64,000 nt of DNA from Callorhinchus milii. Lineage: Eukaryota. Under the pieces are notes generated by a model that was not told the DNA's origin, ran no database searches, and saw only the letters and a program-made list of their open reading frames with translations. A program made the position numbers and the translations under genes. This document shows positions 3,915 to 47,222 of this stretch, one piece after another. Every line of letters starts with the position of its first letter. Within the stretch, counting starts at the first letter, position 1. The DNA is taken from positions 113,400,001 to 113,464,000 of the forward strand of contig NW_024704742.1 in assembly GCF_018977255.1 (NCBI RefSeq), given 5' to 3'.

Positions 3915-4228
3915 GAGATTGGTGAAATGGGTAAGCACATGGCAGATGAAATTTAATGCAGAAAAGTGTGAAGTGACGCATTTTGGGAGGAAGAATGAGG
4001 AAAGGCAAAATAAACTAAATGGTACAGAAGAGAGAGACATGGCAGTTGACATACACAAATCTTTGAAGGTGGCAGGACGGATTGATAAAGCTGTTAAAAA
4101 CAATGTGTTTGGGATCCTTAGCTTTATAAATAGAGGCATAGAGTACGAAAGCAAGGAAGTCATGCTAAAACGATATAAATCACTGGTAAGGCCCAATTCC
4201 GGGCACCACGCTTTCAGAAGGCTTTGGA
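3915..4228 (+). mobile_element. CR1-type LINE ORF2 fragment
   Basis: Translates to WQMKFNAEKCEVTHFGRKN...ILSFINRGIEYESKEVML..YKSLVRP, typical of the CR1 ORF2 C-terminal region; homologous to 36840-36925. Confidence 0.85.
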
Positions 4229-4265
4229 TGTCTGTTTACAGTAATCATTATTCTTATTCCTGTAG

Positions 4266-4634
4266 ATACTGGATCACTGTTGAAGGTACAGACAGAACAG
4301 CCTAAAGTAGTCTCTTACCGGGGTGGAAATGCCACTCTGCCCTGTAAATTCCACCATGAACATGTGGGTGTTGTTCCGACTCCTTCTAAAATCCGGATCA
4401 AGTGGACCAAACTCACCTCTGATTACCTTAAAGAGATTGATGTATTTGTAGTCATGGGACACAACAGAAAAAGTTTCGGAAACTACCAGGGAAGGATTTT
4501 CCTGGAAGAAACCGATGATAATGATGCCTCTATCACAATAACAGACTTAACTTTGGAGGACTACGGTAAATATAAGTGTGAAGTCATTGAAGGACTGGAA
4601 GATGACACCGGTATTGTGTTGCTTGATCTACAAG
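4266..4634 (+). CDS. HAPLN1: Hyaluronan and proteoglycan link protein 1, Ig V-set exon (internal, phase 1-1, 369 nt)
   Basis: Acceptor ttcctgtag|AT and donor CAAG|gtaaga. Encodes ..TGSLLKVQTEQPKVVSYRGGNATLPCKF..IRIKWTKLTSDYLKEIDVFV..DYGKYKCEVIEGLEDDTG..LDLQ; KWTKLTSDYLKE is characteristic of HAPLN1. Confidence 0.96.
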
Positions 4635-5514
4635 GTAAGAAAAAGGCATTCTTTTCAGGTACAAAAAAGAAGTGATGATGGAAACATCTCCTAGTCTTTG
4701 TTTATTTCCTATTTACTTCCTTCATTGCTTTCAGATTATTTTCACCTCTCTTTCAATGCACATCCTTTCCCCATTTACTGCATGGTAGGGTTGTAAAACA
4801 TTCTCCTGGGCTGTTCCAAACTACTGCCTAGTGTCCCGAGGATTGTGAAGGTCTTTTTTCCTTTCTGGCAACTTTCCCACTGCTTGTCCAGATAAGACTA
4901 TCTTGCACATTGGGCTTTGGTTTGCAGAGTTAACAGAAACTGGGTGGCAAGAATCTCCAAGTATCTTCCATTCTAAGTCCTGCTGATGAGCTCGGCTGGC
5001 TGTTCTGTCATCAGTAGTGCCCTGATGACTGTGGACCTGCCTGACTTGAAAACTAGATTTCTAAGCGCGCCACTCAATTCTGACAATCCATTGCCAAGCA
5101 TGTCACCTTGCAGCCAGTTCACTAGGTGGATGACAGGTACCATGAAATGTGTGAGAGCATTGCCACCGTCTTCCTGTCATAAAATATTTACCTTTTTTGT
5201 TCAAAATCTGATATTTTGATTAATTTCACTGCGATTGGTGTTTATATAGAAATTAAATCAGTTGGAGTTCACAACTCTAACTGTGTTCAGACCACTTACA
5301 GTGAAGACATCAGGACATGCTGTAATGCTGGAAAGAGAAATGGCGTAAATTGTTGAGAGTTTAATTTGAAAATGTTTTTCCTGTAATGTGACAAAACCAC
5401 ATCAAGCAACATTAGGCATAAGAAAAGACAGCAAAATTTCTGTACAACATTGACACCAAAGGTGAAGTAGATTTGATTCACTCCTGTAGTTAATATGGTT
5501 CACACTCATTTTAT

Positions 5515-11407: not shown

Positions 11408-11776
<369 letters not shown>

Positions 11777-20996: not shown

Positions 20997-21073
20997 CTGA
21001 CATTTAATGGTCTTATAATTGTTGGATTTCAACATTAAAATTTGTGTAACCAAATTTTTAAATTCTTTTCCAG

Positions 21074-21360
21074 GTCAGTTCTACTACTTGATCCACCCTA
21101 GGAAGCTGACCTATGTTGAAGCTGTGCAAGCCTGCGTTAAGAACGGGGCAAAGATTGCTAAAGTTGGGCAGATGTATGCTGCCTGGAAGTTGCTGGGCTA
21201 TGACCGCTGTGATGCCGGCTGGCTGGCCGACGGCAGTGTCCGATACCCGATCTCCAAACCCCGCTTCCGATGCAGCGAGAGTGAAGCAGCTGTGCGCTTT
21301 GTGGGTTTCCCAGACAAGAAGCACCGGTTATATGGGGTCTACTGTTTCAAGAGCAATTGA
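21074..21360 (+). CDS. HAPLN1: HAPLN1 second Link module, last coding exon to the TGA stop
   Basis: Acceptor ttttccag|GT. Encodes GQFYYLIHPRKLTYVEAVQAC..WKLLGYDRCDAGWLADGSVRYPISKPRFRCS..FVGFPDKKHRLYGVYCFKSN*. Confidence 0.97.
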
Positions 21361-40464: not shown

Positions 40465-41521
40465 TGTCTGTGTGTCAGTGTATCTGACAATCATGCAATA
40501 ACCGATTGATGTACAGACATGATTTATACCTCATCGGAAAGATCTTGCATCTGGCTATGTAATGGGCATATGTTTTGGGGAGATCTCCTATCGTTGATGA
40601 GCAGCTTCACTTGCAACCAAAGGATTCAATACGGAATGTAGACTGGCACACAGACATACATCTCATTTAGACATTATACTCAGGTGGGAGGACTTCAGTG
40701 GGAGGACTCAGTGGGGCGGACTCCTTTAATATATTTTCTCTCTCAATCTTTCTGTCTCTCTCTCTCAGTCTCTCTGTCTATCTTTCTCTCTCCCTCTCAT
40801 TCTCCCCCCCTCACCCCCCCCCACCCACCCACCCCAGTCTCCCTCTCTCCGTCTACCTCTCTCTCTCTTTCTCTCTCTCGTGTGTTTTTTCTCTCAGTCT
40901 CTCTCACTATCTCAAGTCTCCCTCTCAGGCTACCTCTCCCACAAAACAGTCACTACACTTTATTGTATATTCTAACTCAGTCTCTCTCTCTGGCTCTCTC
41001 ACTATCTCAGTTTCTCTCGTGTCTCTCATTATCCCAATCTCTCACCGTCTGTCCCACATGGGAGGACTCTAGCTCCCATGACAACCAGAAAAAGGTGCCA
41101 TAGATTTGTTGCAGAATAGAAGATGTATCTCTCTGAATAGTGTGTGCTTTCCTCTGTCACTACGTAGTTGCAGAATACAATGCCTACCTCATGTTTTGCG
41201 GCTTAATTAAAGCATTTTTTAGTATAGTTCATCACCGACAGGAGATTCTCCTACCAAAAAAATATGCCCATGACACTGCCAGATCAAGACCTTTCCGATG
41301 AGTTATAAATCATGTCTTTACATCAATTGGTTATTGTGTGATTATACAATTATTATACAATTGGTTATTGTGTCCTATACACTGACAACAGACAGTCGCT
41401 TTATTAGTATAGACTGTATATGACGATGGGACATGATTTAGGATACTCCATACTTTTGGAAAGTATGCCTGGGTGTCAATCTACATTCCTGATTGGATTC
41501 TTTGGTTGCAAGTGCAGCTGC
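40465..41521. repeat. Unclassified element with permuted inverted repeats around a CT-rich core
   Basis: 40465-40600 is complementary to 41229-41394, and 40601-40659 is complementary to 41463-41521; a (CT)n-rich tract spans 40737-41045. Confidence 0.7.
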
Positions 41522-42075: not shown

Positions 42076-43804
42076 TTAATGGAAGGGGTAAACAAGTAAT
42101 GGAAAAGGAGCAAACCAGGTTCACATCCTGGACTTGCTGAATGTGTTCTAGGTTGGAGGAGAGTGTGAATGAGAAGTTAAAGCAGTCTACGGCATATCGT
42201 AAATGGAATATGGAATAAATATGAAAAGAAATGTGTTTTTCTTTAAACTCATGTCATCAAGCAGATCAAAACACAAAACTGCATGGAAATAAATGAGCTC
42301 CACTGTATCTGCAACATTTAGTATAGCCGGCGGCCGAACTATTTTAATAATAAAGCTTGTCAAGCCAGTTCTATCAGTAGGACTAATGAATGAAAATAAA
42401 AACAGCATGACCAAGTTTTTTTTTGGTTTCTTTGGTGAACCAGAGCATTGTAAAAAAGTAACAAAGTTTTTTTTTCAGTATTTCATTCACAAAAAAACCC
42501 AAAACATTCACATTATACACTATACAAGTTATAATATAAATACAGAATTGTTCTATGTGCATTGTAATGAAAAAAATAAATCATACACGTCAGCACAGTG
42601 ATTTTTCGTTGCCGTTTATAAAAAAAGAAAGACAAGACATAATTGGGTGCAGCAACCAGCACATTTCCTTTTTAGAAAAAAAATTGACAGCAACAACAAA
42701 TGTGTTACTGAGTCAAAGCAGTCTTACGTTCTGAATATTGTTTTCTGCCATTACTGCTTTAATCCTTGGATTTTTAGTTCACCATTTCTTTAACGTTTCT
42801 CTTTTTTTCTGAGCAAATCTCAATTGACCAAATTTGTCTCCCTCACTCCCATCATAATAGTTTCTAAAATGTTTCTTTGTGCAATTTAACTGTCTGTAAT
42901 CATGGCCTTAAATATCATGCCAGAAAGTTTGTGGTAGAATGATATCATTAAGTTTCCCCTGCAGTGCATGTTGTAGAAGACTGCAATTGTTTGTAGATCG
43001 GCCCAATGATCCAAGGGTTAACAGCAGGAATCTTACAAAAATATAGTTTAATTCTCTCCTGTACCTTACTTTTAAAGCAAATGAGCATTATCCTTTGAAT
43101 TAAAGTGAAATGGCCAAACATCATCAGCATATGCTATACAGTTGCCACATTCAAACATAAACATTCATTTAAAAAAAGGACAAGATGGTTATATATACAA
43201 AAATTAATTTATTTTTTTGTTGTTTTTTTACAAAAAAAAGGAGGCTTATAATCACCTTAGAAAAATGCAGCTTCATATCGTAGTGTGGTTAGTGAGGGCT
43301 GCAGAAAGCTGCCTTATCTGAGAACGTTAATATATTAGCAATTTGACCTTAGAAAGTACCAATGGGCTTTTGGAAAGGCCAGGTAGCATCCTCCTTCCAC
43401 TTGCTATTCTGATTGCTTGGATCCAGGTAAGTTAAAGAGCAGCGTCGTAATGCAGTCTCTGTCTGGGCTTGATCCCATCTTGAATCCTTGGAATTACAAT
43501 ACATGGGGGAGGGATATCTCGCAGCTGTAGAAGTGAAAGACTGGTTGAGGAAAAAGAGTTGTCCAATGTTTTGCATCCAATTATATCTAATCGCCTAGGT
43601 TTGTGCAAAATCACTTTTATGTACATTATGCAGGTTAACCCTTTCCAGCCTATGCTCCCCTCAAGTTGTTTTATGGAATACCAGACTTAAAATGTCAATC
43701 AAAATGCCTCGACTATACAGCCACCAATTTACTCCCATCAAAGTGGCACTTTTTAACAGCTTAATTTTGCTTTATGTTTGTGACATAAAGACAAGCTAAA
43801 ACAA

Positions 43805-43818
43805 CCACGAGGGGGCAG
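43805..43818 (+). promoter_or_regulatory. Candidate CTCF site
   Basis: CCACGAGGGGGCAG matches CCASYAGRKGGCRS at 13 of 14 positions. Confidence 0.35.
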
Positions 43819-44608
43819 TAAAAGCACAGTTTGGCATTTTGTCATGCAGCAGCAATCAATGCAATAAATAGTGAAATGCATTAAACGTTTGATATATTTT
43901 TAATTTAACATTATGGGGGAAAATGTGCAAACGTATGAATAAAATGCCGATTTATAGTGCAGAACCCAATGTGTGACAGTTATTACTAAAATTAGAGAAC
44001 GCCAGTAGAGGTAAATAACTTCAACTTGCCTTTTTTTAAAAGGCAGGGAGAGGGTTGTTGGCACAAACAATTACACACTAGTATATAGCAATTACAGCAA
44101 AATTGCTGAACCATTGAAGGATACTTTTGACACTTTTACTTCTTAAGAAAAAAAACAATTTTACGACACAAACATGATTGCGTGGGCTTTCCTTCCTCAA
44201 ACAATTATTTAAAATTTATGAAGTGAAATATTCTGCAAGCCCAGGGCAAACAAAACGTTCAATCGTCTCAGGAAAAAGTGTGACAATGCTAGCGTAGGCC
44301 CGAAAAAGATTAAAGAGAGCTCACCCAAAAGAAGTATGAATGTAAGACTTTATATCCAGTACCTACACAGCAGTATTGTTGAATTATGCCACAATGAATC
44401 ATTTAATAGTCTGCTGCAGTATTCAAACAATGAGGTGGATCCAAATAAAGCTATAGGCTGGAAAGGGTTTTCGTTCCTTTTTAAACTATATTTATTCAAA
44501 TAATTTTGCATAGAATGATTCTCAATTACAAATAGCTATCACATTGGAGGCTATTTCACTTCCAGACATATATTTTTGTTAAAAAATTCATTTGTCTCAC
44601 TTCTCCCA

Positions 44609-44652
44609 AACACACATCCAACACACACATACACACACACTGATACACACAC
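44609..44652. repeat. Imperfect (CA)n microsatellite (GU repeat in the VCAN mRNA)
   Basis: aacacacatccaacacacacatacacacacactgatacacacac. Confidence 0.85.
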
Positions 44653-44729
44653 GCGGATACAGGCACACAACTAAGAAACAGCTTTGGCTGTAATTGTGAG
44701 AATGGATTTCACACCGTTCAGTGATCTGG

Positions 44730-44860
44730 TCAACGCCCTGAACCATGCAATCTCCTGATCCAACGATGACGGTGTCTGACAGGCTCTGACAGAGAGTCCC
44801 TCATCCCTTTTCTGTACAATACTTGACGGTTCCTCGAGGAATCCCGTTGATATGTAGAAG
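44730..44860 (-). CDS. VCAN: Versican terminal coding exon (basic C-terminal tail); missed by the ORF track
   Basis: Acceptor ttttacttccag|CT. Encodes (P)STYQRDSSRNRQVLYRKGMRDSLSEPVRHRHRWIRRLHGSGR* with TGA at 44732-44730; resembles the versican PSAYQR...HRWSRR tail. Confidence 0.9.
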
Positions 44861-46835
44861 CTGGAAGTAAAAGAAATTCACAATTAAACAAACAAACACG
44901 CAATAGACAAAGGAATACTACATTTTTCCAAATGTACCAAGAGTTAAGGTTAAAATTAAAATCAGTTTTTTAAACTATTTCCATATGATTTAATTTACCA
45001 AAAAGGGGCTAACTGATAATCCATGATTTTTAAGCACTTTCAGGAAACATAATGATCAATAATAATCCTTGCATTTGATATAGCACCTTTCACATCAGCA
45101 GGACGTTTCATAGGATTTAATGTAAAGTGGAGTGACTATTTTGTGGACAAATGTGGCAACAGAATTATCCCCAAAACAGCTGTGAGGTGAACACCCAATT
45201 TTATCTGGGGAACTTTGGCCAGGACACCAGATGAAACTTCTCTTTTCACATCGTGCTAAGGGATAGTCTATCAGTGCCAGTTTGAGATCAGGAATTTTAA
45301 TATAAGAGCATGATAATTAGTCTCACAGAAGTGCAAATAAACTGTATATTTAAACCTGAAGAATTTCAAAAAAGCTTTTGTCAACTGAACGTAGAAAATA
45401 TTCTAAAAAGGCAATTATGTGAACATTTTAAGCTATCATGATGCCAGGACTTTAGTTGTACTTTTAATTATGTGAATAAGAGTTGGATTACTTTGGCTCT
45501 GCTGTGTTAGATTGAATCAACAGTGGTTCCTACTCAACACAGATTCTTCCTGTCAAAGCTTGACAAATCCGCTGAGAGAAATGTTCAGCCACGTATGTAC
45601 TCTTACTGTTCCACTTCCAAACCGAGATGTCCATTTATTTCCAATTATTTTTATAAAAGTACTGTAATTAAAATGAGCAACATAAAAGGAAGCTTCAGGT
45701 CAATGTAACTGACCTGCTCTTTTGTAAGTCATGAGCACTTCAATAGCATGTGGGTTTTAAAAAGAATCAACATTCTCTTAAGCAATCATTTCTTTACGAC
45801 CCACTCAGGCCAAAGGGCACCTTTTGTGAACTAACAAAGCATGAAAGAATAAAATGTCTATGAATTATATCATTTAATGGTTCGGGACAACTGACAATTC
45901 CAGACACTTGAATAATGTTTAAATCTGGTATCTGGGTGGCCTACTATCTATGTAACAGTGAATCACTACATTTCCAGTCCAGGTTCCTGAGAATTAATCC
46001 CAAATTCAATCTCAAAAACATCACCACAGAAATATGGGCATAGTTATTCTCAGCCTGTGTGTTTCACTGGATCTGGGCTGCTAAATATACTACCTTGGTG
46101 ATAAAAAAGCACTTCATACAGAATAAAAACACCACACTATCTACTCCATGCTTTAAAAGCCTATCTCTATCAGATAATTATACTGAAAAACTAATAACCC
46201 GACTCTCTCACTTTCCTCACTGAAAAATAATTACATAGAATCACAGCACTAAATAGGCCATTCAGTTTCGGCAGTCTTTGTTGGTGTTAATTCTCCAAAT
46301 GAGCCTTCAACCATCCTAAATCTAGCCTCTTTCCATGCCCCTCTATTCCTCTAGTGTCCTGGTCAGGAACCACCTAAATTAAATTGGCCATTGACTTTCT
46401 GGCTACTTGTGGGACATTGCTGTGTGCAAATGGGCTGCCGTGTTTGCTTACAAATTCACAGTCACTACTCTTTACAGTAAATCCTATGAAGCACTTTGAG
46501 ACATCCTCCCTAAATCAAATGCAAGGATTATTATTATGTTTCTTTCTCATTTATGTTTCCTCTTAAATACACTGATGCTTCAGCCATGTCTGACAGTGAG
46601 TTCCACATTCATCCCCTGTGTAAAAAAAGTTCCTCTTAAACTCTCTTTTAGATCTGTTAGTGGCTATCTTATATTAATGCCGCTTCTTATGGACTCAACC
46701 CAAGAAGCAGAAAGTTATCCCAGTCAATCATATCACACTTCATAAAAATGTAAAATGTCCTGGAGCATACTATTGCATACTATTAATACACTGAGCCCTT
46801 CTCTAACTTGCCCCCAAAATACTGGAAAAACTTAC

Positions 46836-47018
46836 GTATTAAGCAGCTGACCCTTGGTTCATCCCAGTGTCCATTGGATCGACATTTGATGATTGGAATG
46901 TGGCGCTGGATGAAGCCAGATCTGCAGTGGTACCTGACCAGCGAGTTTATTTCATATCGAGGCTTCATCTTGCCAAATGTTCTGGCATTTTGCACAACAG
47001 GAGGCTGACCACAGGCGA
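46836..47018 (-). CDS. VCAN: Versican G3 CCP/Sushi exon (183 nt, phase 1-1)
   Basis: Acceptor gctttag|TC and donor ATAC|gtaagt. Encodes [61 protein letters not shown]. Confidence 0.96.
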
Positions 47019-47222
47019 CTAAAGCAGATAAAACAAAAATCAGGGTGTCTTTATGAAGAAGGATCAATGAAAAACACCCAATGGTGTAAATACTTCTGAA
47101 CAATTCCACTTCACCCTGTGCAAAATACAGGTCATACTTTTTATTCATAGCCTGTGAAAACTGTGACAATGAGCATTGCTACTGTACTTTTTGTCAAAAT
47201 ATTAGTTACCATAATTTTGTTA

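Follow-up and report, generated by a model that had tools for sequence, protein, structure and literature searches.

A long-range duplex predicted in the 3' untranslated region of versican in Callorhinchus milii

The versican 3' untranslated region (UTR) of the elephant shark Callorhinchus milii carries two 17-nt arms that are exact reverse complements. Together with their flanks, these arms dominate the predicted folds of the region as a duplex of about 50 bp. We regard this helix as real, probably selected, and apparently undescribed, and it belongs to a kind already known, the long-range 3' UTR duplex. Versican shapes the matrix during heart development, in wound repair, and in tumors. The DNA analyzed is a stretch of 64,000 nucleotides (the window), and all coordinates below are positions in it unless otherwise marked.

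The versican terminal exon and its complementary arms

A lectican gene on the minus strand has its 3' part in the window. Its sushi exon (46837-47019, minus strand) has 100% identity to two UniRef entries of Callorhinchus milii named versican core protein. Among the 120 UniRef matches listed for this exon, the named ones are almost all versicans. The coding part of the last versican exon occupies 44730-44860 (minus strand), starting at 44860 and closing with a stop codon at 44732-44730. The peptide that it encodes shows homology to the C-terminal ends of shark versicans P0003 and P0035. Given this stop codon and the match to a shark C-terminus, the UTR extends from 44729 toward lower coordinates. 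Both arms are downstream of the stop codon, on the same strand and in the terminal exon, which places them in the versican 3' UTR.

Several other features of the locus were seen. The UniRef models of Callorhinchus versican (P0001 and P0002) read on past the sushi exon into intron sequence and omit the true last exon. Tail-to-tail with versican lie three exons of a hyaluronan link protein (4190-4672, 11408-11776, and 21019-21357, plus strand), presumably HAPLN1. Downstream of versican, around a CT-rich tract, there are inverted copies at 40489-40659 and 41251-41521, with arms of 34-59 nt, 82-90% complementarity, and scattered mismatches.

The core helix (H1) joins a 5' arm at 44453-44469 to a 3' arm at 43637-43653 (both minus strand). 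Read along the mRNA, the 5' arm runs from 44469 to 44453 and begins 260 nt past the stop codon. A preliminary description of this DNA had reported the pair, and a check on the sequence bears it out. The arms are exact reverse complements over 17 bp with 799 nt between them, and the bulged A plus two extra G-C pairs beyond the core are present. The UTR is also non-repeat, as had been stated, since a genome BLAST of it returns only itself, save for a TG-rich tract near 44625-44680. In the 991-Mb assembly the exact 17-mer occurs at these two sites only, and 9 further sites match it at one mismatch. An inverted SINE/Alu-type origin was ruled out, the arms being single-copy sequence and not copies of a dispersed repeat. 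A search of 42200-44900 against Rfam gave 6 weak matches, all under the gathering scores and off the core arms. A 10-bp pairing of the outer end of the 3' arm with another partner (43634-43643/43013-43022) is at chance level.

The rarity of the 17-bp core is not enough by itself in a scan of such size. The chance of about 2e-4 originally put on it was too low: when the 2430-nt region is dinucleotide-shuffled, 4 of 3000 sequences reach 17 bp (~1.3e-3), roughly six times that estimate. If the core were all there was, pure chance singled out by a very large scan could account for it, this being a probability per UTR-sized region that a set of thousands of UTRs would reach. The sequence around the core bears on that explanation, as set out below.

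Extent of the duplex and its excess over nulls

A partition-function fold of 2430 nt makes the duplex longer than 17 bp. It consists of about 50 bp in colinear blocks, pairing 44510-44418 with 43682-43604. The core H1 (-29.6 kcal/mol) has a pair probability of 0.99 in this fold and equally in that of a 1545-nt isoform. On its outer side, a 13-bp helix with 2 G-U pairs (H0) joins 44498-44510, directly upstream of the proximal AAUAAA, to 43604-43616 (both minus strand), with a probability of 0.86 in the 2430-nt fold and 0.94 in the 1545-nt isoform. On its inner side, an extension (H2) joins 44418-44451 to 43654-43682 (both minus strand). This extension starts with 2 bp and a U-rich bulge, continues with a weaker stretch of 3 bp, and ends in blocks of 5, 6, and 7 bp. 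Its pair probabilities in the 2430-nt fold are, in this order, 0.98, 0.78, 0.98, 0.94, and 0.90. The blocks of 5, 6, and 7 bp correspond to 44435-44418 with 43682-43659 (0.90-0.98). Inside H2, a UTR segment of ~735 nt (43683-44417, minus strand) is looped out and contains AUUAAA at 44407 and 43904. H0, H1, and H2 all persist in the 1545-nt isoform, which ends past the AAUAAA at 43213. The fold of the 941-nt region is better than that of 20 of 20 shuffles (z -3.6).

The 2430-nt fold also displays a second, distal set of helices (43588-43540/42660-42635 and 43330-43243/42907-42790) nested around the distal AAUAAA. This set was dismissed. It beat shuffles only in post hoc windows, and 17 of 42 control regions hold more confident long-range pairs.

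Because the flanks pair too, the earlier claim that the long-range duplex of the versican 3' UTR is non-random has stronger support than was first offered for it. With the core held fixed, the inner 45-nt flanks reach -55.2 kcal/mol, which is equalled by 2 of 1000 shuffles and by 3 of 1000 real flanks drawn from that UTR. The outer 45-nt flanks are equalled by 10 of 1000 shuffles. When the flanks are lengthened to 65 nt the counts become 8, 3, and 55 of 1000, the outer test weakening to 55/1000. The best long-range duplex of 70x70 nt reaches -56.9 kcal/mol versus -39.4 +/- 3.2, and 0 of 98 block shuffles of the UTR equal it. The position-fixed flank tests (2/1000 and 10/1000) and an energy that none of the 98 whole-UTR shuffles attains argue against pure chance, which we consider very improbable.

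Real sequence was used as a further null. The controls, putative UTRs, were the 2430 nt that follow the stop codon in 40 single-exon GPCR frames and in two lectican paralogs. The 40 GPCR frames were drawn from the best 51 of 150 matches, with clustered near-duplicates, partial matches, and small contigs excluded. Without masking, 11 of 42 controls have a stronger duplex than versican, and a perfect helix of at least 17 bp is found in 5 of 42. Visual inspection assigns four of the five to SINE-like or microsatellite sequence and one to a 62-bp inverted copy. Repeat and low-complexity masking leaves a stronger duplex in 1 of 42, with the masking taking 5-75% of the controls versus 10% of the versican UTR, a bias that favors versican. 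Over the first 1200 nt, versican has 51 confident long-range pairs, a number exceeded by 4 of 42 controls. A permissive alignment score of complementarity does not separate versican (13 of 42 controls score higher). The duplex is clearly non-random for its own sequence and top among single-copy regions, and it is not extreme among raw genomic regions.

Probable selection, poly(A) sites, and a proposed function

When aligned, the two arms give 68 matches, 11 mismatches, and 9 gaps, and they stay colinear over ~100 nt, with an identity of 58%. An old local inverted duplication, arising by template switch or repair and then neutrally decayed, would leave colinearity of this kind and could fold without any selected role. 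Such copies do occur. One of the 42 controls (L047, G000:C19:5663361-5667020) holds a 62-bp perfect inverted copy downstream of its GPCR frame that survives masking, and 59-nt arms at 85-90% lie ~2 kb from the versican UTR itself. A neutral copy would also suit the absence of a G-U bias and of the arm from the 481 nt of teleost UTR described below. The pattern of the pairing argues the other way, with perfect blocks standing between unrelated loops. Simulated neutral decay to equal identity leaves 20-27 mismatches on average versus the 11 observed. The same simulation retains a 17-nt run in at most ~1% of decays (0/1332, 1/1312, and 12/1293 for indel shares of 10, 20, and 30%), the arm limits having been picked after the fold was seen. 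This block pattern, rare in simulated neutral decay, favors selection on the blocks, with the arm limits being post hoc. We hold a neutrally decayed copy to be unlikely, while giving it some weight.

Strand bias is absent. The opposite strand folds equally well (-70.9 versus -71.2 kcal/mol), and G-U and A-C mismatches number 1 to 1. The minus strand was assumed throughout because it is the strand of the mRNA. Complementarity that is strand-symmetric would equally suit a motif that acts in the DNA and is present as two inverted copies, for example a site bound by protein between versican and its tail-to-tail neighbor, or a cruciform, with the RNA helix incidental. The core also contains a short GGAAA-type word that resembles transcription-factor sites. 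However, ~50 colinear pairs in several blocks are more than a binding site, the genome has no further exact copy of the 17-mer, and bulged arms 800 bp apart are poorly suited to a cruciform. We give an origin at the DNA level very little credence.

The position of the duplex relative to poly(A) signals determines which transcripts could form it. As the preliminary description had noted, an AATAAA (44496-44491, minus strand) closely precedes the 5' arm, 21 nt ahead of it. This proximal AAUAAA (44491-44496) sits in the internal loop between H0 and H1, so that the 5' arm covers 21-37 nt past the hexamer. It is a candidate site, and its downstream element is weak (13 U of 40 nt). A 13-bp A/T-rich inverted repeat (44481-44493/43039-43051) overlaps the last 3 nt of the proximal hexamer; its length is attained in 398 of 3000 shuffles.

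Judged from sequence only, the distal AAUAAA (43208-43213, minus strand) is the strongest candidate for the main poly(A) site. Downstream of it there are 21 U in 40 nt, versus 11-16 for five other hexamers (the count for a sixth is partial). A UTR ending after this hexamer (43213-43208), which has the most U-rich downstream region, would be ~1.55 kb long, and the 2.4 kb given earlier is unsupported. The duplex is formable only in transcripts that pass 43600, and those ending at the AAUAAA at 43213 carry the whole of it. Since 43213 has the best poly(A) context, the duplex is probably present in the main isoform, with ~900 of its 1550 UTR nt folded back. The earlier suggestion that short isoforms are without the helix follows from the layout for transcripts ending at the AATAAA at 44496, itself a candidate site.

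The reading we favor, tentatively and with confidence just short of even, is that long isoforms carry a selected long-range duplex, which compacts the UTR and is bound by a Staufen-type double-stranded-RNA-binding protein. The two arms would pair as RNA in versican mRNAs extending past 43600, forming the ~50-bp duplex around the perfect 17-bp core and folding back ~900 nt of the proximal 3' UTR. This pairing would be maintained by selection. In the mature long isoform the duplex could then offer a platform for a protein of the Staufen type, and the protein-bound duplex would compact the UTR, raising message stability or setting localization. Cleavage at the proximal AAUAAA, or at one of the weaker AUUAAA sites in the loop, would yield isoforms without the duplex, which may make it an isoform-specific feature. 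According to PMC10164587, long-range, symmetric duplexes in 3' UTRs are preferred by STAU1, and transcripts that contain them degrade more slowly. Nothing in our analysis points to Staufen in particular as the partner.

A selected duplex might instead act in 3'-end processing. Its 3' arm would flank the proximal AAUAAA by pairing and bury the region 21-37 nt downstream, so that late proximal cleavage would be blocked and the long isoform favored. H0 stops 1 nt before the hexamer and H1 begins 21 nt after it, a bracketing that suggests gating of the proximal site. In addition, the unpaired probability of the 5' arm falls from 0.46 to 0.01 once the 3' arm is present. According to PMC8052449, poly(A) sites are enriched within conserved long-range pairings of human introns. 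However, the duplex opens the very elements that gating would have to close: the unpaired probability rises from 0.27 to 0.77 for the hexamer and from 0.24 to 0.84 for the U-rich tract. The partner arm is transcribed only ~800 nt later, and the proximal site is a candidate site with a weak downstream element. In human, the hexamer is presumably inside the loop and not ahead of the 5' arm, so the geometry may not be conserved. We consider a role in 3'-end processing quite unlikely and keep to a protein-binding duplex of the long isoform as the preferred reading.

Conservation and comparison with known systems

A bolder proposal concerns the age of the core helix. It may be an element of versican mRNA some 450 million years old, preserved from chimaeras to mammals through compensatory changes while the loop length changed severalfold, and it may couple poly(A) choice to a double-stranded-RNA-protein switch of the long isoform. 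We see this as possible and lean somewhat against it. The human VCAN UTR presumably has two complementary arms as well, with a much shorter loop and, as the preliminary description proposed, covariation in the helix.

An ortholog search at the DNA level in metagenome contigs gave 2 loci from 211 candidates, one of them reaching the UTR. No UTR with the arms came from genome contigs (0/156), viral contigs (0/10), or plasmids (no match). Open frames across each arm, taken as pseudo-proteins, gave no match at E 10 in one search and one unrelated tandem-repeat protein in the other. Metagenome contig L010 holds an apparent teleost versican end, with 43 of 60 residues identical to versican versus 37 and 39 for the paralogs. 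Neither arm is present in the 481 nt of UTR after its stop codon, although in the elephant shark the 5' arm starts only 260 nt past the stop, and the similarity of this UTR to the shark UTR is not above that of shuffles (best 38.5; shuffle 95th percentile 39). The teleost piece is partial and possibly from either teleost duplicate, and therefore weakens conservation in all gnathostomes without refuting a link between tetrapods and sharks. A 7-mer common to the teleost UTR and the 3' arm was rejected as chance (594 of 2000 shuffles). The 7-mer is held in a short local hairpin (L010:3378-3405) ~250 nt past the teleost versican stop. The two lectican paralogs have at most 7-9 nt in common with an arm and are without a comparable duplex.

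The meaning of the helix depends on how far it is conserved. If deep conservation is true, it would be a structural control point, so far undescribed, in a matrix and cancer gene that has been studied intensively; if it is restricted to chimaeras, it would be a modest curiosity. A conserved helix would offer two precisely defined arms to target by compensatory mutagenesis and with antisense oligonucleotides. It would also give grounds to re-read the microRNA-sponge fragment experiments, where the available parts of the reports leave fragment folding undiscussed (PMC2638016, PMC2963607).

No description of the helix, and no versican paper with the arm motifs in print, was found in a search that left most subscription papers, figures, and several supplements outside its scope, among them the hiCLIP atlas file, which may already list the duplex. 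Two candidate literature matches for the arm motifs proved to be primers for other genes. The supplements of PMC5859009, PMC11564109, PMC8728028, PMC8052449, and PMC11255127 contain no useful VCAN row, PMC7798263 does not name VCAN, and the accessible parts of PMC2119961 and PMC4608261 hold nothing relevant to the helix.

The versican 3' UTR is itself the subject of earlier work. In the portions available of PMC2638016 and PMC2963607, it is treated as a microRNA-binding (ceRNA) element, of which a conserved human part of ~700 nt was reported functional. That work is on the same gene and concerns microRNA sites, not RNA structure. The 7-mer seed matches for miR-199a-3p and miR-144 are absent from the elephant shark versican UTR.

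Among long-range structures, inverted repeats of the SINE/Alu type form long-range double-stranded RNA in 3' UTRs. The versican duplex is alike in being long-range double-stranded RNA and differs in that its arms are single-copy and not transposon copies. The PCCR (PrePH) catalogue, as laid out in PMC8052449, comprises pairs with both arms intronic, an energy of -15 kcal/mol or lower, and a distance below 10 kb, with conservation as an entry criterion. The versican pair falls within the energy and distance limits (core -29.6 kcal/mol, <10 kb). Both of its arms are in the terminal exon, and it was rejected as a PCCR. This catalogue, the main one of conserved long-range pairs (PMC8052449), excludes all exons, so 3' UTR pairs like that of versican are outside its search. 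The two are alike as long-range complementary pairs with poly(A) signals within or beside the loop. The PCCRs of PMC8052449 are conservation-based, whereas the versican duplex is known here from one species.

Crosslinking has revealed long-range 3' UTR duplexes in bulk, and few single cases are known to combine deep conservation with a genetic test. The original hiCLIP paper reportedly gave XBP1 as an example of a STAU1-bound long-range 3' UTR duplex. The STAU1-bound duplexes of PMC10164587 resemble the versican pair in being intramolecular within a 3' UTR, with a span far above 100 nt and non-repeat arms, and the bulge-free symmetric core of versican may be a further likeness. The versican duplex would likewise compact most of its UTR. 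Its loop of 799 nt exceeds the span set for STAU1 duplexes (>100 nt within one 3' UTR). Its stem is a 17-bp perfect core with bulged or asymmetric extensions, and STAU1 stems, long, symmetric, and poor in bulges, have a median of 20 paired bases (PMC10164587). The main text of PMC10164587 does not name VCAN. The flanking blocks of versican have large asymmetric loops, unlike the STAU1-bound duplexes. The latter were found by crosslinking in human cells (PMC10164587), whereas the versican duplex is predicted and in a chimaera. At best, then, the duplex would resemble a long-range 3' UTR duplex of the hiCLIP type.
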